A stretch of 36,377 bases of DNA from a virus (lineage: Duplodnaviria; Heunggongvirae; Uroviricota; Caudoviricetes): IMG/VR virus record IMGVR_UViG_2917398303_000003; one strand, given 5' to 3'. Shown here one piece after another: positions 1 to 10,748 of this stretch; position 1 is the first letter of the stretch, and every line of letters begins with the position of its first letter. The notes under the pieces are model-generated. The model made no database searches, was not told the DNA's origin, and saw nothing but the letters and a program-made list of their open reading frames with translations. The position numbers were made by a program, and so were the translations under genes.

Positions 1-1053
1 TTACGGGGTAATGCCAACCGCTGCCGCCACTTTGTCGCCACTTGGCAGCGTTGCCAGAGGATTGAAACGGAGCGCCGTTTCCAGATGATCCGGTGCCAGA
101 TGTGCGTAACGCATAGTCATTTTTATATCGTGGTGTCCGAGAATTTTTTGTAAGGCCAGAATGTTTCCACCCGACATCATGAAGTGCGCCGCAAACGTAT
201 GGCGCAGAACGTGTGTGAGTTGACCGCGAGGGAGCACGATAGACGTTTTTTCCATCACGGATAAAAATTGAAAATAGCAATCTGTGAAGAAATTGAACCC
301 ATCAAGCGCCATGATCTCTTCGTAAAGCTCTTTACTGATAGGGATGCTTCTGTTTTTCTTCCCCTTCGTTCTGACAAAGGTAATTCGGTATTTGGTCACC
401 TGTGAGCGGGTAAGATTTACGGCTTCACGCCATCGTGCGCCTGTGCTTAAGCATATCTTAACTACCAGTGCCAGAATTGGGTCCTGACGTTTGCAATCAG
501 CCAGCAATTCAACAATCTGCTCATGGGTAAGCCATGCCATCTCTTTTTCTGCGATGGTGAATTTTCGCATGTTCTCCAGTGGGTTCGGATACGACCATTC
601 GCCCAGACGGGATAGTTCGCTAAAAACACTACTTAGATAGCTTTGCTCCAGGTTAATGGTGACCGGGCTGGCTCCTTTCTTCCATTTCTCGCTGAAGTAG
701 ATCTCACCTGTCAGTCGTTTATCTCGATAATGGGCAAACATTTTAGATGTGAGATCGGTTGCAAGGGGATTGCCCAGAGCGTCAACCATCAGCAGCAATT
801 TGTCATAGACATGCTGCCCAGCAGTCAGAGATTTACCATGTAGTTTGAACCATAGTTCAACTACGTCTTTCAGTGTTCGACGATCCACTGATTCACCCAG
901 CCAGGGCTTTGCTTCGGTTTCTTCCATCGTGTGGCGCTCAAAAGCCAGAGCTTCGCCTTTGGTGGCGAATTGTTTACGCACACGACGCCCACTGCGTCCG
1001 GCGGGGTAACATTCGCAAAGCCATTTTCCTGTGGTGAGTTTTCGTACTGCCAT
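1..1053 (-). CDS. int: Tyrosine integrase (P2/186 Int family)
   Basis: ORF track 1..1131 (-). Start placed at the internal Met (MAVRKLTTGKW...) at 1053, which has a GGAGGG RBS 7 nt upstream; stop is at 1-3. C-terminal catalytic region HVLRHTFAAHF...GHHDIKMTMRYAHL fits the tyrosine-recombinase R-H-R-Y signature. Position at the prophage end next to cI. Confidence 0.9.
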   Translation of the reverse strand: MAVRKLTTGKWLCECYPAGRSGRRVRKQFATKGEALAFERHTMEETEAKPWLGESVDRRTLKDVVELWFKLHGKSLTAGQHVYDKLLLMVDALGNPLATDLTSKMFAHYRDKRLTGEIYFSEKWKKGASPVTINLEQSYLSSVFSELSRLGEWSYPNPLENMRKFTIAEKEMAWLTHEQIVELLADCKRQDPILALVVKICLSTGARWREAVNLTRSQVTKYRITFVRTKGKKNRSIPISKELYEEIMALDGFNFFTDCYFQFLSVMEKTSIVLPRGQLTHVLRHTFAAHFMMSGGNILALQKILGHHDIKMTMRYAHLAPDHLETALRFNPLATLPSGDKVAAAVGITP

Positions 1054-1239
1054 AAAAAATGCCCTCCAGTAGAGAGCATTTTTACTGTATGTATAACCAG
1101 TGTCAATGTATGAAATCCTGCGACCATACATCTCACTGAAGCCATAATGAAGTTAGCTATTTTTTGCTATGTGAGTATGTGACTTTTGCGGTTAGCCTGC
1201 GGCTCATTGTTATATTAGGCGCAGATATAAAAGCAAAAT

Positions 1240-4230: not shown

Positions 4231-5084
4231 GCACCATCCTGAAATGGGCGGGAAATAAAACCGCCATTATGTCCGAACTGAAAAAACATCTTCCTGCTGG
4301 CCCGCGACTGGTTGAACCTTTCGCGGGTTCATGTGCTGTGATGATGGAGACGGATTATCCCAGCTATCTGGTTGCGGATATTAATCCTGATTTAATCAAC
4401 CTCTATAAAAAGGTTGCCGCTGATTGTGAATCGTTTATATCTCGCGCCAGAGTTTTATTTGAGGAAGCAAACAGGGAGGTGGCTTATTACAACATAAGGC
4501 AGGAGTTTAATTACTCCACTGAAATTACTGATTTCATGAAAGCGGTATATTTCCTGTATCTCAATCGTCATGGTTACCGTGGGTTATGTCGCTATAACAA
4601 GAGCGGGCATTTCAACATTCCGTACGGTAATTATAAAAATCCGTATTTCCCTGAAAAAGAAATTCGCGCATTTGCAGAGAAAGCCCAGCGGGCAACGTTT
4701 ATCTGCGCGAGCTTTGATGAAACGCTGGCGATGCTGCAGGTGGGAGATGTGGTGTATTGCGATCCGCCTTATGACGGCACGTTTTCCGGTTATCACACTG
4801 ACGGCTTCACTGAAGATGACCAGTATCACCTGGCATCCGTTCTTGAACATCGATCATCTGAAGGTCATCCGGTCATTGTTTCTAACAGTGACACATCCCT
4901 GATTCGTTCGCTGTATCGCAATTTCACTCACCACTACATCAAGGCAAAACGCAGCATCGGCGTGTCGGCTGGCGAGAGTAAATCTGCAACAGAAATCATT
5001 GCTGTTTCCGGGGCGCGCTGCTGGGTGGGATTTGATCCTTCGCGTGGCGTGGATAGTTCTGCTGTGTACGAGGTGCGTGTATGA
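4227..5084 (+). CDS. dam: DNA adenine methyltransferase (Dam-like, N6-adenine MTase)
   Basis: ORF track 4167..5084. ATG at 4227 has a GGAGG RBS. SAM-binding EPFAGSCAV motif near the N-terminus and catalytic DPPY motif (CDPPYDGT). Confidence 0.85.
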
Positions 5085-7264
5085 GTCATGCCGATATGAG
5101 CGACTCTAGCGGCTTTAACGAGGCCGCTGCAGCATTTTCATGGAACGGCCCGAAAAAGGCCATAAACCCTTATCTGGACCCGGCGGAAGTTGCGCCGGTT
5201 TCTGCGCTTTCAAACCTGATCACTCTGTATGCTGCCGATAACGAGCAGGAACAGCTGCGCCGCGAGGAATTGAGTGAACAGGTCTGGGAGCGTTATTTCT
5301 TTAATGAATCCCGTGATCCTGTCCAGCGCGAAATGGAGCAGGATAAGCTCATTAGTCGGGCAAAGCTGGCGCATGAGCAGCAGCGTTTTAACCCGGACAT
5401 GGTCATTCTGGCGGACGTCAGCGCCCAGCCCACCCACATCAGCAAGCCGCTGATGCAACGTATCGAATACTTCAGCAGCCTGGGCAGGCCAAAGGCTTAT
5501 TCCCGCTATTTGCGTGAGACGATTAAGCCATGTCTGGAGCGACTGGATTGTGTACGCGACAGTCAGCTATCTACTTCTTTCCGTTTTATGGCAAGCCATC
5601 AAGGGCTGGAGGGCCTGCTGATCCTGCCTGAAATGAGTCAGGATCAGGTGAAACGCCTGTCCACCCTGGTAGCTGCGCATATGAGCATGTGTCTTGAGGC
5701 CGCTTGTGGTGATTTGTATACCAACGATGACGTAAAGCCAGAAGAAATCCGCAAGACATGGGAAAAAGTGGCAGCGGAAACCCTGCGTCTGGATGTTATC
5801 CCGCCTGCGTTTGAGAAACTTCGTCGGAAAAGAAACCGCCGCAAACCTGTGCCCTATGAACTCATACCGGGTTCGCTGGCACGTATGCTTTGCGCCGACT
5901 GGTGGTATCGAAAATTGTGGAAGATGCGTTGCGAATGGCGGGAAGAGCAGTTGCGCGCTGTCTGCCTGGTCAGCAAAAAAGCATCTCCTTATGTCAGCTA
6001 TGAAGCCGTGATGCATAAACGTGAGCAGCGCCGTAAGTCGCTGGAGTTTTTCCGTTCTCATGAACTGGTGAACGAAGACGGCGACACGCTGGACATGGAG
6101 GATGTGGTAAACGCCAGCAGCAGCAACCCTGCGCATCGCCGCAATGAGATGATGGCCTGTGTTAAAGGTCTGGAACTTATCGCGGAAATGCGCGGTGACT
6201 GCGCCGTTTTCTACACCATCACCTGTCCGTCACGTTTCCATTCCACGCTAAATAACGGCAGGCCCAACCCGACCTGGACAAATGCGACGGTAAGACAAAG
6301 CAGTGATTATTTGGTCGGCATGTTTGCTGCATTTCGTAAGGCGATGCACAAAGCCGGATTGCGCTGGTATGGCGTGCGGGTGGCTGAGCCGCATCATGAC
6401 GGTACAGTTCACTGGCACCTGTTGTGTTTTATGCGCAAAAAAGACCGCCGCGCCATCACTGCATTACTGCGTAAGTTTGCCATCCGTGAAGACCGCGAGG
6501 AGCTGGGCAATAACACGGGGCCGCGCTTTAAGTCTGAGTTGATTAACCCGCGCAAAGGAACGCCGACAAGCTACATCGCGAAATATATCAGTAAGAACAT
6601 TGACGGGCGTGGTCTGGCTAGCGAGATCAGCAAGGAAACGGGTAAATCCCTGCGTGATAACGCTGAATACGTGAATGCCTGGGCGTCTCTGCATCGTGTT
6701 CAGCAATTCCGCTTCTTTGGTATTCCGGGGCGTCAGGCTTATCGTGAACTGCGATTGCTGGCTGGTCAGGCGGCAAGGCAGCAGGGTGACAAAAAAGCAG
6801 GTGCGCCGGTACTGGATAACCCACGCCTTGATGCCATCCTGGCTGCTGCTGATGCTGGTTGTTTTGCCACCTACATCATGAAGCAGGGGGGCGTACTGGT
6901 TCCCCGCAAATATCACCTCATCAGAACCGCTTATGAAATCAACGAAGAGCCGACCGCCTATGGTGATCACGGCATTCGTATTTATGGCATCTGGTCACCC
7001 ATTGCAGAGGGCAAGATCTGTACTCATGCAGTGAAGTGGAAAATGGTTCGTAAGGCCGTTGACGTTAAGGAGGCGGCAGCCGACCAGGGCGCTTGCGCCC
7101 CTTGGACTCGTGGCAATAACTGTCCCCTTGGACTCGTGGCAATAACTGTCCCCTTGCTGAAAATTTGTACCAACAAGGGAAAGACAAATCAGCTGATGGG
7201 GATACCAGAACGGATATCACCCGTATGGATGACAAGGAGTTGCACGATTACCTGCACAGTATGA
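5081..7264 (+). CDS. A: Replication initiation protein A (rolling-circle HUH endonuclease), reading frame interrupted near the 3' end
   Basis: ORF track (727 aa). HUH-like motif TVHWHLLCF and paired tyrosines YIAKYISK. Start overlaps the dam stop (ATGA). Position matches P2 gene A. The last ~55 codons are read through a 26-bp tandem duplication and look frameshifted. Confidence 0.85.
7101..7152 (+). repeat. Exact 26-bp direct tandem duplication (2 copies of cttggactcgtggcaataactgtccc) inside the 3' part of gene A
   Basis: Read directly: 7101..7126 and 7127..7152 are identical, followed by a partial third copy (cttg). Confidence 0.9.
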
Positions 7265-7521
7265 ACAAAAAAGAGCGCCGGGAACTGGCTGCAAGGTTAC
7301 GCCTGGTGAAACCGAAACGGCGTAGAGACTACAAACAGCGAATTACAGACCATCAACGACAGCAGCTCGTCTATGAACTGAAGTCCAGAGGATTTGATGG
7401 CAGCGAGAAAGAGGTCGATTTACTCCTTCGCGGCGGCAGCATTCCGTCAGGAGCAGGCCAGCGTGTCTTCTATCGGAACCAGCGTTTGCAGGAAGATGAT
7501 AAGTGGCGGAACTTGTATTAA
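7153..7521 (+). pseudogene. A: Displaced C-terminal segment of A (frame restored if one 26-bp repeat copy is removed)
   Basis: ORF track 7165..7521 (118 aa). Its frame is open upstream back through the repeat. Removing 26 bp puts it in frame with the A ORF. Confidence 0.6.
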
Positions 7522-7616
7522 TTACGCTGATTAACAATTAATGCTCTAAATAATAAGCAAAGGATAAATCCTATTGATTTTAAAAAAACTTTTTACTTTA
7601 ACGATATTATTATGTA

Positions 7617-7632
7617 CTGTATGTAAAACCAG
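7617..7632 (+). promoter_or_regulatory. LexA-box-like motif (CTGT-N8-CCAG) in an AT-rich promoter-like region upstream of the DinI-like pair
   Basis: Sequence CTGTATGTAAAACCAG; the LexA consensus is CTGT-N8-ACAG, so there is one mismatch in the right half-site. Overlapping TATTAT hexamers lie at 7605..7613. Confidence 0.35.
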
Positions 7633-7679
7633 TGGTTAAGTATACAGTATTGTCTACCCACAGTGAGATAGGAGGGAAG

Positions 7680-7868
7680 ATGCAGGATTATTTTTTGGAG
7701 TCGTTGAAACTCCAGCGAATTGATTTTTTTCTTAAGCTTGTAGTGGCCAGTGAATGTAGTGATCAGGAAAAAGAGCTTGCGCTGCTTTGGATTTCAGAAC
7801 TGACGGATGAACTCATGGCAAAAATCAGAACCCACGAATATAACCGCTCAATGGATGTTGTTAACTGA
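7680..7868 (+). CDS. Hypothetical protein (62 aa from ATG 7680), first gene of a putative SOS-inducible pair
   Basis: ORF track 7632..7868. ATG at 7680 has a GGAGGG RBS. Confidence 0.5.
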   Translation: MQDYFLESLKLQRIDFFLKLVVASECSDQEKELALLWISELTDELMAKIRTHEYNRSMDVVN

Positions 7869-7878
7869 GGGGTAATTT

Positions 7879-8112
7879 ATGCGCATTGAAATAATGATCG
7901 ATAAAGAGCAAAAAATTAGCCAGTCTACCCTGGACGCCCTTGAATCCGAGCTTTACCGCAATCTGCGCCCCTTGTATCCAAAAACGGTAATCCGCATCCG
8001 CAAAGGTAGCTCTAACGGTGTGGAACTGACCGGACTGAAACTGGACGAAGAAAAAAAACAAGTGATGAAAATTATGCAGAAGGTGTGGGAAGACGACAGC
8101 TGGCTGCATTAA
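7879..8112 (+). CDS. DinI-family protein (Tum C-terminal domain-like)
   Basis: ORF track (77 aa). MRIEIMIDK...LDALESEL...KIMQKVWEDDSWLH aligns by eye with E. coli DinI (MRIEV...IDALAGEL...ILQETWESADDW). GAGGGG RBS 6 nt upstream. Confidence 0.7.
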   Translation: MRIEIMIDKEQKISQSTLDALESELYRNLRPLYPKTVIRIRKGSSNGVELTGLKLDEEKKQVMKIMQKVWEDDSWLH

Positions 8113-8225
8113 GAAACGTTGCCCCCAGGAGGATTCATTCTGATGGGGGCTAGTTTGGGCAACGAGTGAAACGAGGTGTAAGGTGGTCGGCCTGTTGGCA
8201 ACGTTGAAAAGCGAAAGCCGCAATA

Positions 8226-8645
8226 CTATAAATTAGTTTTTATTAGATAGTGCCTTTGTGCCCCTGCTTTAGGGAAATCAGGTAATGACATTTGAAGTAT
8301 ATAACCCTGTTTTTCATAAAAGGGGAGCGCCTGGAAGCTAAATGTATCGACAAGGCCATGAATACAACCGTTCATCAAACCTTCTTTCTCAGCCATGCTC
8401 ATAAGTTTGCTACCCAAACCGCCACTCCGTGCTGATTCACTCACCCAAAGATAATCAATACACAGCCATGGACCTTTCCTGTCCGCAATTAATCCACCTA
8501 CCATCTCTCCGATTTCATTTCTGCAGTAGACACCGATCTGTCCATTTTTACTAAAATCGATAAACTGAGCATTATAGCTTCTTAGCCCCGCTAACAGTTC
8601 TTCTCTATCATATTCAGTAACTTTATGAACTACTTGAATGTCCAT
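8226..8645 (-). CDS. GNAT-family N-acetyltransferase (139 aa), standalone cargo gene
   Basis: ORF track. Acetyl-CoA-binding motif of the R-x-x-G-x-G/A type ([11 protein letters not shown]). Opposite strand to neighbours. No adjacent small partner ORF is visible. Confidence 0.7.
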
Positions 8646-8905
8646 ACATATCCGTTTTAGTGATTATTTTATTCAGTGCTAAATGTTATAGATAAGTTTC
8701 CTTTATGTTTCAATGCATTGTTGTAAATTAAATCAATTTACCATTTCCGGGTCCCCGTTCCTTGCTCACAGCGAACCTTTAGCTTTGTTAGCTCGAATGT
8801 GTCGGTTTTCAAGTGGTCAATCAGATACGTACCTTCACCCCACTCGTTAGTGCATGTCTATGCCGCATGAATCCGCATGATCGTTTGAGGATCGTTTTTG
8901 CTGAG

Positions 8906-8931
8906 GCCCCCCCAGAACTGGCGGGCTTTTT
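8906..8931 (+). terminator. Candidate rho-independent terminator (GC-rich imperfect stem followed by TTTTT)
   Basis: ggcccccccagaactggcgggc can form a ~6-bp GC stem with one bulge, followed by ttttt at 8927..8931. Lies in the GC-richer cos-proximal segment. Confidence 0.3.
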
Positions 8932-8976
8932 GCTTATGTCATGCAGGTGCATGAAAATCACTGCATAAAGCGGGCA

Positions 8977-8995
8977 GGCGTGGCGGGGATACGAG
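8977..8995. other. Candidate cos site (19-nt cohesive-end sequence, P2/186-like)
   Basis: GGCGTGGCGGGGATACGAG followed by CGCGCGCT. From memory, the P2 left end is GGCGAGGCGGGGAAAGCAC followed by TGCGCGCT, and the 186 end begins GGCGTGGCGGGGA. Recollection only, not verified. Confidence 0.45.
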
Positions 8996-9066
8996 CGCGC
9001 GCTTGTGTTGGCCTCATACAGTGAATTGTAAATTAGTTTTACATATGTTATATAAAAGTTACGTTT

Positions 9067-10638
9067 ATGAAAATTGGAAATTTCGCTGTGAAATTGAAGG
9101 ATATTTTTTTAGGTAGTACTGATGCAAAAAATGAGTTATTGGTAAACAGCCCTGAAGAAGTGGAACGTTTTAAAAAACTTTATGTTGTTCCACCTGCGCT
9201 ACTCATTGAAAAATATTATTCAAATGATAAGTATTTTATCTCTGGTTTAAAGGGAACAGGGAAAACAGCTTTACTGCGTTATATTGCCCTGAAGTTAGAT
9301 GAGTCTGATAAAATCCACTCAAAATTCATTCTGTTCAAATCAGAAGTTGATGAGGAATCAAGGAAAGAATTATCTAGGGCATCAAGGCTTGGTATTGAGG
9401 AGGTTTTAGAAAATAGTGCTGATTACGATATATCAGATTATGAGGCTGTTTGGCGATGGTTTATATATAAAGCTATATCTAAAATGATAATTGAAAACGA
9501 TTTGGATGTTTTTCAAAATACTCCTTCTCTTGCAAATTTTCATGCGATAGTAAGCTCGGAAGTAGCTATTAAAAACAGAACAGGAATTATGCGGTTGATT
9601 CCTACTATAAAAAAAGGAAATATAGAAATAAGTAAATCTCCCAAGCTTAACCTTGATTTAAACTGGGGGCAGGATGGCGTGGCAAAAGTTGGTTTCTCTA
9701 AATTGGTCAAAAGTATTGATGCTATTTTTGATGAGTTAGTCCCGTCAACAGCAAGATTGAACATATTTTTTGATGAGTTGGAATTAAATTATTCAACTAA
9801 CAAACAATATCAACGTGATTCTCTTCTTATAAGAGATTTGATAGTCGTAATTGAAAAAATTAATGCTTTAGCAAAACGAAAAGGTTTTAAAATTTGCCTT
9901 TATGCTGCTATTCGCTCAGAGGTTATGAATTCAGTGGTTGCTTTAGGAAAAGAAATTAACAAACCATTGACGGATTTTGGTACGGATATATTTTGGAATA
10001 GACCTGGTGTTACTTCTGCACAACAACCACTGCTTCATATCGTTGAGCAAAGAATTAATAATGCTAGAATTGAAAAAGGTTTAACTCCATTAGATGGAGC
10101 AAGTTTATGGAAAGAGTACTTTCCAGATATAATACATAATAAGATACCTCAGACTTATCTTTTACATAATTCATGGTATAGGCCTAGAGATATAGTTAGG
10201 TTATTATTATCTGCTCAAGAAAGTTATCCAGAAGAAACAAAGTTTTCTACGCAATCATTGGAAGCAATACGCAAAAGATATTCTCAATTATCTTGGGTTG
10301 AATTGTCTGAGGAGTTGAAGGCTAAATATAAATCTTCAGAGATTGAAGCAATCAAAACTATTTTTTATGGATATAAGCAAATATCAACTCTTAATGAGTT
10401 TACTCAACATTGTGATGAGTTAAAAGAGTTTTATCCAGAAGTTGTTGACTTGCTGAGAAATCATTCGACTATGGCTTTGCTTAAAGATTTATTCAGAATT
10501 GGCGTAATTGGTAATTTCGATAAGCCGGCTCAAACTGAAAAAGGTAAGATGCGGTGGTCATTTAGGGGGGATGAAAGTATTCTTCCAAATCAGAAAATTT
10601 ATGTGCATAATGCACTGATTGCCTATTTTTCAATCTAG
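9067..10638 (+). CDS. Uncharacterised P-loop NTPase (523 aa); candidate single-gene anti-phage defence protein
   Basis: ORF track. Walker A GLKGTGKT at 9244..9267. Two hhhhDE Walker-B-like motifs (AIFDELV and IFFDELEL) around 9730..9780. An arginine-containing YRPRDIVRLL segment follows. No SD; a possible sigma70 promoter (TTGTAA at 9027..9032, TATAAA at 9051..9056) would make the mRNA nearly leaderless. The gene is AT-rich by eye. Confidence 0.8.
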   Translation: MKIGNFAVKLKDIFLGSTDAKNELLVNSPEEVERFKKLYVVPPALLIEKYYSNDKYFISGLKGTGKTALLRYIALKLDESDKIHSKFILFKSEVDEESRKELSRASRLGIEEVLENSADYDISDYEAVWRWFIYKAISKMIIENDLDVFQNTPSLANFHAIVSSEVAIKNRTGIMRLIPTIKKGNIEISKSPKLNLDLNWGQDGVAKVGFSKLVKSIDAIFDELVPSTARLNIFFDELELNYSTNKQYQRDSLLIRDLIVVIEKINALAKRKGFKICLYAAIRSEVMNSVVALGKEINKPLTDFGTDIFWNRPGVTSAQQPLLHIVEQRINNARIEKGLTPLDGASLWKEYFPDIIHNKIPQTYLLHNSWYRPRDIVRLLLSAQESYPEETKFSTQSLEAIRKRYSQLSWVELSEELKAKYKSSEIEAIKTIFYGYKQISTLNEFTQHCDELKEFYPEVVDLLRNHSTMALLKDLFRIGVIGNFDKPAQTEKGKMRWSFRGDESILPNQKIYVHNALIAYFSI

Positions 10639-10644
10639 AGTGAC

Positions 10645-10668
10645 GCGGTGCATTAAAAAATGCACCGC
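10645..10668. terminator. Perfect 10-bp inverted repeat (gcggtgcatt / aatgcaccgc, 4-nt loop) between convergent genes; possible bidirectional terminator
   Basis: Read directly. It starts 7 nt after the TAG stop of the 523-aa gene. There is no clear U-tract on either side. Confidence 0.35.
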
Positions 10669-10748
10669 ATTGAATATAGATAATGTAATTAATTAAAACA
10701 TGTTAATAATTATTGTGAGTTGTCGTGTAATATGTTTTTACTTTCGGT

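Follow-up and report, generated by a model that had tools for sequence, protein, structure and literature searches.

Recurrent tandem duplication of the predicted replication origin interrupts the initiator gene A in P2-like prophages of Escherichia

Results

An exact 26-bp tandem duplication splits gene A

The window, a 36,377-nucleotide (nt) stretch of viral DNA (IMG/VR record IMGVR_UViG_2917398303_000003; coordinates are those of its given strand, position 1 being the first letter), is a complete P2-like (Peduoviridae) prophage, and its gene A encodes gpA, a P2-like rolling-circle initiator with the replication origin (ori) inside its own coding sequence. Gene A is represented by two open reading frames (ORFs) on the plus strand, one of 727 amino acids (aa) at 5081..7264, which closes on a TGA stop codon, and one of 118 aa at 7165..7521 with a TTG start. 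Within the first of these, positions 7101-7126 are identical to positions 7127-7152 by direct sequence comparison, and Tandem Repeats Finder delimited an array (7098..7156, plus strand; period 26, 2.3 copies, 100% matches) that consists of two full 26-bp units and a third copy of the heptamer CCCCTTG. The chance expectation for exact tandem 26-mers in 36 kb is ~8e-12. The initial annotation of this DNA, made from its letters alone, had described the exact 26-bp duplication and the frames on either side of it, and both the repeat and its ORF coordinates and frame arithmetic proved correct.

In-silico removal of one copy yielded, as that annotation had anticipated, a single 2415-nt ORF of 804 aa, which aligned without gaps to gpA of Escherichia phage Cartapus at 96.3% identity. 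In the window as it stands, tblastn placed Cartapus gpA residues 1-684 on the 5081..7264 frame, and residues 672-804 on an orphaned C-terminal tail coding sequence of 121 aa in frame 1 (7153..7521, plus strand), of which 7165-7521 is the mechanical ORF. The uninterrupted frame of ~804 aa that is typical of this gpA subfamily is thus broken by a frameshift after residue 683, and the truncated product carries 44 out-of-frame residues after its 683 native ones. Neither this product nor that of the 118-aa ORF had an exact counterpart in the protein collections.

The heptamer CCCCTTG occurs at three positions in the window (7098-7104, 7124-7130 and 7150-7156), and the phase in which the 26-bp repeat is read is therefore arbitrary. 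The order in the single-copy allele is GCG-CCCCTTG-GACTCGTGGCAATAACTGT-CCCCTTG-CTG; that is, intact genes of the subfamily carry a perfect 7-bp direct repeat around a 19-bp spacer, with the second CCCCTTG lying 26 nt downstream of the first.

Alignment to intact A genes had been set beforehand as a test of whether the duplication disrupts A, and it upheld that proposal: no relative ended near 7264 with an independent downstream gene. In the phage collection, 58 of 58 full-length matches (among them Cartapus, Klebsiella phage 4LV2017 and Salmonella phage RE2010) have a single 2415-bp A gene, equal to the 2441 bp of the window minus 26. The best 80 of at least 592 IMG/VR relatives were inspected for intactness, and all were single-copy and intact with 804 aa, except for one of 806 aa (L042, described below). 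Approximately 1,259 of 5,426 complete E. coli genomes carry an A gene of the window type.

Two ways in which the split frames might represent a functional arrangement were rejected. No Pfam family was matched by the 118-aa ORF (7165-7521), and its independent expression from the TTG start was discarded because it lacks a ribosome-binding site. Programmed ribosomal frameshifting was set aside since every intact relative has one continuous ORF and, on reading the sequence, no X XXY YYZ slippery motif was present between 7127 and 7264.

Truncated gpA keeps its catalytic domain and loses a conserved tail

The hallmarks of the Phage_GPA family all lie upstream of the frameshift. Residues 188-510 (5642..6610, plus strand) match Pfam PF05840 (Phage_GPA) over profile positions 1-321 of 321 (E=4e-128, 427 bits), and this catalytic domain is retained in the truncated product. 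The HUH motif was located by a motif search of the translation as H-W-H at aa 444-446 (6410..6418, plus strand), which aligns with the HWH of P2 gpA. Two tyrosines predicted to be catalytic are found in the sequence YIAKY (aa 498-502; 6572..6586, plus strand), a YxxxY arrangement that aligns with P2 gpA residues 450-454, of which Y450 and Y454 are the catalytic pair.

What is lost is the C-terminal tail. Over aa 691-804, the ratio of nonsynonymous to synonymous polymorphism (pN/pS) was 0.16 in the A frame, compared with 1.3 and 2.0 in the other two frames. The tail also contains a basic ERRELxxRLRxxKP segment in common with phage 186, and a RGFDGS..E.D.L.RGG...YRN.RLQE segment in common with a different gpA lineage (L221, see below) and, more weakly, with P2. 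Purifying selection together with motifs common to other gpA lineages argues that the tail is functional, and on this comparative evidence a prophage with the duplication is probably replication-defective, as the initial annotation had proposed.

The gpA tails are modular: 186 has the ERRELxxRLR segment in common with the window family, and another lineage the RGFDGS…YRN.RLQE segment. Homology between the gpA proteins of P2 and the window family, which are only 31% identical, extends precisely to the origin (P2 residue 626, Cartapus residue 681), and the C-terminal tail beyond it is a different module.

At 7261..7264 (plus strand) the sequence reads ATGA, in which the last three letters are the TGA stop of the shifted frame (7262-7264) and the first three an in-frame Met codon of the tail (ATG, 7261-7263), so that the two overlap. 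This ATG lies ahead of both conserved tail modules, and re-initiation there would give an 86-aa tail fragment. No Shine-Dalgarno sequence was seen at a usable distance from ATG 7261 in the window, for which reason we regard termination-reinitiation at this site as unlikely; a functional role of the overlap is speculative.

The duplicated unit corresponds to the replication origin core

Nick sites were taken from the rep_origin features of the P2 and 186 GenBank records (a slash marks the nick hereafter). The P2 nick is annotated at position 29892, in GCGCCTCG/GAGTCCTGTCAATAACTGT, and that of 186 at position 28576, in GCGCCCTCTCG/GAGTTCTGTCAATAACTGT. The window sequence GCGCCCCTTG/GACTCGTGGCAATAACTGT aligns codon for codon with both sites, giving the core GCGCC..CTYG/GA......CAATAACTGT, and in the protein alignment the P2 sequence APRSPVNNC stands opposite Cartapus gpA at the origin. 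Because of this alignment with the annotated nicks, the window sequence is considered the homologous origin. By this homology the duplicated 26-bp unit is the origin core, made up of the heptamer CCCCTTG with the predicted nick (CCCCTTG/G) followed by GACTCGTGGCAATAACTGT. Neither this identity nor the recurrence described below had been recognised in the initial annotation.

In the window, all on the plus strand, the first heptamer (7098..7104) would constitute the 5' half of the nick site, by homology to the annotated CTCG/G of P2 and 186. The first predicted nick (CCCCTTG/GACTCG) falls at 7104..7105, with an uncertainty of ~1 nt, and the first ori core, GACTCGTGGCAATAACTGT, at 7105..7123, its assignment resting on conservation and on the CAATAACTGT element common to P2 and 186. 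The second heptamer (7124..7130) forms the duplication junction; by the same homology argument it leads into a second predicted nick at 7130..7131, and an ori core of the same sequence as the first follows at 7131..7149, as Tandem Repeats Finder also reports. The third heptamer (7150..7156) corresponds to what is, in single-copy genes, a downstream pseudo-nick half-site (CCCCTTG/CTGAAA).

Sequence variation at this site is strongly reduced. In 81 intact genes, the ori codons had a synonymous diversity of 0.029 versus ~0.13 elsewhere, a 4.6-fold drop; nucleotide diversity (pi) at gene positions 2011-2040 was 0.0016 versus a gene mean of 0.034; and a 46-nt stretch across the unit was identical in 84 of 89 aligned genes. 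This is the signature expected of a cis-acting DNA element inside a coding sequence. Reduced synonymous variation and homology to the P2 and 186 rep_origin sites thus both place the predicted cognate nick of gpA within its own gene.

Gene A of the window therefore resembles that of P2 and 186 in its Phage_GPA domain, HUH motif, YxxxY tyrosines and origin in the 3' part of the gene. It differs in that the second CCCCTTG heptamer, 26 nt downstream, is present in the window gpA family but absent from the P2 and 186 origins, and in that the window gene is broken by a duplication of the origin.

The duplication recurs in separate prophage lineages

A junction-specific 46-mer, which is unable to seed megablast on single-copy DNA, was used as the query for other occurrences. 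The junction was present in 8 of the 5,426 complete E. coli genomes (S88, MS7163, N53, M8, two isolates of Res13, EC261 and 19KM1863), which corresponds to an allele frequency of ~0.6% of loci (8 of ~1,259 genomes), and in all eight the A gene is annotated as a 'frameshifted' pseudogene by the NCBI Prokaryotic Genome Annotation Pipeline. Five IMG/VR contigs, one of them with three copies, and three metagenome contigs also contained it. There were no occurrences among 50,697 phage records and no matches in the GTDB species representatives. The three-copy carrier (L006, IMGVR_UViG_3300029508_000048) has three tandem 26-mers on the minus strand at ~10196-10260, so that 52 extra nt shift the frame, and its gpA gene is ~16% diverged from the others.

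In an alignment of 182 A genes, the carriers were scattered in separate clades. S88, MS7163, N53, L007 and L224 form a clone with identical A genes, which indicates that the duplication is stably inherited. For every carrier outside this clone, the nearest relative was a single-copy gene. Carrier L008 differed from Cartapus at 8 of 2415 nt, with 0 differences within +/-300 bp of the duplication, as against 3.2% from the nearest other carrier; 19KM1863 differed from the single-copy gene of RM10466 by one single-nucleotide polymorphism (SNP) plus the duplication, as against 14-17 differing sites from Res13 and EC261. No flanking haplotype specific to carriers was found over +/-60 to +/-300 bp.

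Because each carrier outside the S88 clone is nearest to a single-copy gene, these sequence relationships imply at least 10 independent duplication events in prophage lineages across Escherichia. We infer a mutational hotspot associated with the origin. The events read as recent, since they are placed at the tips of the tree, are rare, and have near-identical intact relatives.

Recurrence on this scale, with at least 10 independent events, excludes both an assembly artefact and a single ancestral allele as explanations. The initial annotation had named an artefact as its alternative, and a homopolymer indel in gene gpU (described below) does hint at some sequencing error in the record; the identical 26-bp duplication was nevertheless recovered by different laboratories in 8 complete E. 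coli genomes, of which three (S88, MS7163 and N53) are separately sequenced isolates of one clone, and in 8 other contigs; of the assemblies of this locus, more than 99% have a single copy, which speaks against a systematic assembler problem. We consider an artefact in the window record scarcely credible. One ancestral duplication spread among prophages by recombination might be entertained, given that P2-like phages are mosaic and that 19KM1863, Res13 and EC261 are adjacent on the tree. Each carrier is, however, closer to a single-copy gene than to other carriers within +/-60 to +/-300 bp (with one tie, at +/-60 bp), 19KM1863 is a single SNP from RM10466, and the triplication carrier is ~16% diverged. 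Such spread is accordingly very improbable, and was rejected on local haplotypes.

In two further genomes of the same sub-family, E. coli A14 (L218) and E. coli SC480 (L219), a 'frameshifted' gpA results from single-base insertions in runs of G or A; these may be sequencing errors rather than real lesions.

Expansions predominate at the origin, and smaller duplications occur at the predicted nick

The junction of the reciprocal 26-bp deletion gave 0 matches in the E. coli genomes, IMG/VR, the metagenomes and the GTDB species representatives. If expansion and deletion occurred at equal rates, observing at least 10 expansions and 0 deletions would have a probability of ~0.001. Single-stranded DNA of the origin was folded for both strands with one or two copies, and structure was not significant (z -0.6 to -1.0); hairpin-driven bias of slippage was dropped as a candidate on this account.

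Two genes carry a different expansion at the same site. In IMGVR_UViG_2778261537_000018 (L042, gene position ~2023) and E. coli KL53 (L217, NZ_CP030919), there is an in-frame 6-bp tandem duplication (GGACTC or GACTCG), which can be phased as CCCCTTG/GACTCG/GACTCG/TGG, such that it starts at the predicted nick and its new 3' end, CTCG, matches the P2 nick half-site. Only 1 nt of flanking homology accompanies it. KL53 has a second in-frame duplication, of 12 bp (CAAGGGAAAGAC), which lies 27 bp downstream of the origin; both gpA genes are annotated as, or read as, intact. The share of possible phasings that fall on the predicted nick, itself placed by homology, is 1/8 for the 26-bp event and 1/2 for the 6-bp event.

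Among the 182 aligned A genes, the only indels besides the 26-bp events and the small duplications just described were one of 3 bp, two of 1 bp, and a 5'-terminal gap of 27 nt by which a sub-family with another gene start is recognised; since the genes in this panel were not sampled without bias, the comparison is indicative only. In a different gpA lineage (L221, IMGVR_UViG_2531839591_000017, 675-760, minus strand), an intact gene of 659 aa carries the ori core twice in the same frame (…SSVNNCTEG-AW-SSVNNCTEG…); the copies are 33 bp apart, and only the downstream one keeps the CTTG/G nick motif. When IMG/VR was scanned for ori cores of the P2/186 type in tandem, a single case emerged, which is imperfect and in frame.

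The prophage is otherwise nearly complete

The genes of the window run from the integrase (1-1131, minus strand) through a 186-type CI repressor, an early operon with Dam and gpA, cargo, and the portal-to-gpD morphogenesis genes to ogr, and the P2 core gene set (Q, P, O, N, M, L, lysis, tail, D, ogr, int, repressor and A) is present in syntenic order. Of 46 Cartapus proteins used as tblastn queries, 38 gave stop-free matches, 31 of them over at least 95% of query length and in the same order; gpA and gpU were each split in two frames, and eight accessory Cartapus proteins had no match. The tail gene gpU (31632-32117) has a 1-nt deletion in a T5 run at ~31944-31948 (TTTTT to TTTT relative to Cartapus), with the result that its ORF stops at 32045 and encodes 137 aa versus 161. 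Either the change inactivates a second gene, or it is a sequencing error in the homopolymer.

The host flank (33500-36377, ybjL-ybjM-grxA) matches 5,420 E. coli genomes, with an identity of ~91.5% in every case, and because this identity is so low, the host is taken to be an Escherichia species other than E. coli. The same locus in E. coli often adjoins an ogr/Delta-like gene, which makes it a common attachment region of P2-like phages.

Cargo between gpA and the portal gene (7600-10700) consists of a small hypothetical gene, a DinI-like gene, a GNAT acetyltransferase (8226-8645, minus strand) and a 523-aa protein with weak ATPase and mad8 matches (9067-10638). Elsewhere, an ORF of 270 aa with no assigned family lies between gpS and gpV (19165-19980, minus strand), and an Acyl_transf_3 acyltransferase follows the tail fibre genes (24920-26053, minus strand).

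Discussion

The explanation that we favour overall, with a probability of roughly 55%, is that the origin core of these P2-like prophages is recurrently duplicated, that the duplication breaks gpA, and that gpA itself probably makes it. For this last component taken separately, that the duplication is made at the nick by gpA, we regard the chances as even. In the mechanism proposed, gpA would nick at CCCCTTG/G and hold the 5' end (GACTCG...) through a phosphotyrosine bond, while the 3' end is extended or synthesis overruns the origin at the end of a round. After 26 nt, the growing strand would again end in ...CCCCTTG-3'OH, mimicking the natural joining substrate; were gpA to join this end to the 5' end that it holds, one extra unit would be produced, and replication would fix the change. 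In phiX174, protein A, which is named as the prototype of the Phage_GPA family, initiates with one tyrosine and terminates with a second (PMC5714925), and rolling-circle synthesis is described as proceeding ~10 nt beyond the nick before termination (Khan, as cited in PMC5037232). The gpA model would account for the occurrence of expansions only, for a 6-bp event that extends from the nick to CTCG, and for a hotspot limited to the family that has the second heptamer.

P2 gene A is dispensable for lysogenisation, and for this reason a genome duplicated in its last round of replication could still be packaged and lysogenise. It is likely that the duplicated genome remains packageable and lysogeny-competent, and that the prophage it gives rise to cannot replicate autonomously unless one copy is lost. 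Taken together, a self-inflicted duplication written by gpA could turn active P2-like phages into prophages that are dead for replication, packageable and competent for lysogeny, possibly in a reversible manner; we put this fuller scenario forward tentatively. Reversal might take place if replication started at one origin copy and stopped at the other.

Several points weigh against the favoured explanation. The nick position is predicted by homology, with ~1 nt of uncertainty, and the joining by gpA of a CCCCTTG 3' end created 26 nt downstream is a putative step. The flanking heptamers leave the phase of the repeat ambiguous, so that ordinary slippage predicts the same product. The asymmetry between expansions and deletions could stem from selection or ascertainment rather than from mutational bias; selection could produce it because the duplication allele keeps an origin and can revert, and the deletion allele cannot. 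Finally, loss of function of the truncated gpA is predicted from sequence conservation, its catalytic domain is whole, and the ATGA overlap at 7261-7264 could let the tail be made separately.

Ordinary replication slippage between the two CCCCTTG heptamers, with no role for gpA or its nick, is the main rival explanation; it is possible and has to be taken seriously, even if we doubt it; the origin would then matter only as a sequence that happens to contain a repeat. A 7-bp direct repeat around a 19-bp spacer is a classic substrate for slipped-strand mispairing, the exact tandem product is the one such mispairing gives, and triplication is what would be expected within an existing tandem array. 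Moreover, P2 and 186 lack the second heptamer, and the search for tandem ori cores of their type gave one imperfect in-frame case. Slippage should nevertheless yield the reciprocal deletion at least as often, both alleles being expected to be neutral in a resting prophage, which is at odds with 0 deletions against at least 10 expansions (p of ~0.001). It also fits poorly with the neighbouring 6-bp duplication, which begins at the predicted nick and has 1 nt of flanking homology in place of a flanking repeat, and a hairpin that could bias its direction was not found at the origin. A further possibility is that the duplication allele is not dead and represents a reversible or self-correcting state, in which A is restored by loss of a copy through slippage, or in which truncated gpA nicks and, by starting at the downstream copy and ending at the upstream copy, releases a single-copy wild-type circle, or in which the tail is re-initiated at the ATGA and two fragments reconstitute gpA. 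Such a state is compatible with the placement of the catalytic domain, the HUH motif and both tyrosines upstream of the frameshift, with two complete origin cores, and with the overlap of the shifted stop and an in-frame ATG ahead of both conserved tail modules; alleles of 1, 2 and 3 copies exist in nature, 26 and 52 are not multiples of 3, as a contingency switch would require, and the lack of deletion alleles agrees with persistence only of alleles that keep an origin. Against it, 0 duplication alleles occurred in 50,697 phage records, and the OFF alleles, at ~0.6% of prophage loci and on terminal branches, have the pattern of a deleterious allele rather than of a maintained switch. Stable inheritance in the S88 clone and the lack of a usable Shine-Dalgarno sequence at ATG 7261 likewise make this improbable.

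The initial annotation had also suggested that the prophage is a defective element retained for its cargo, which would make inactivation of A part of a longer domestication by the host. Both gpA and gpU are frameshifted, cargo genes are present, and defective P2-like elements that retain defence genes are known (PMC13586616). The suggestion did not hold up well: apart from gpA and gpU, the structural, lysis and early genes that have a counterpart in Cartapus are all full-length and stop-free, most with 95-100% protein identity, so that the prophage is otherwise nearly whole; the gpU lesion is possibly a sequencing error; and duplication alleles are rare (~0.6%), sit on terminal branches and have near-identical intact relatives. 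We judge long-standing domestication to be unlikely.

The chemistry that origin duplication by gpA would need has parallels in better known systems. The phiX174 gene A protein is alike in its two-tyrosine nick-and-join reaction and in remaining covalently on the 5' end, and the phiX174 origin, CAACTTG/ATATTAATAAC, has CTTG/ and AATAAC in common with that of the window. In rolling-circle plasmids (the pC194 and phiX174 literature), termination is signalled by short partial origins. Were strands joined at a look-alike half-site of this kind, exactly the product seen in the window would result; for a P2-like gpA such joining is putative, and what the pseudo-site of the window has in common with the nick site is limited to the 7 nt 5' of the nick. 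The outcomes also differ, since the plasmid cases are engineered deletions or hybrids, whereas in natural prophages such as that of the window a small tandem duplication has become fixed.

Pseudogenisation of prophage genes is ordinary, and the label 'frameshifted' is already given to these loci by the NCBI pipeline. A survey of P2-like elements reports that, among the core genes, GpA is the most frequent pseudogene in those that are inactive (PMC13586616, Nucleic Acids Research 2026). That study gives no mechanism at the level of the lesion, the terms 'frameshift' and 'tandem duplication' being absent from its text; the window is one such case of pseudogenised GpA, and ori duplication would be one specific, recurrent route to it. 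In the searchable full-text literature, no description of an origin duplication in a P2-type phage was found. What stands out here is the combination: the lesion is a duplication of the origin nick site, it recurs independently in at least 10 prophage lineages, and it takes the form of expansions only.

In practical terms, the junction sequence could serve as a simple marker for prophages of this gpA family that are predicted to be replication-defective. If the duplication is indeed caused by the initiator, it would be a natural case in which a rolling-circle HUH enzyme, by erring at its own origin, mutates the gene that encodes it. Such a duplication would also provide a concrete route from active temperate phages to grounded prophages, and would help to explain why GpA is so frequently pseudogenised.

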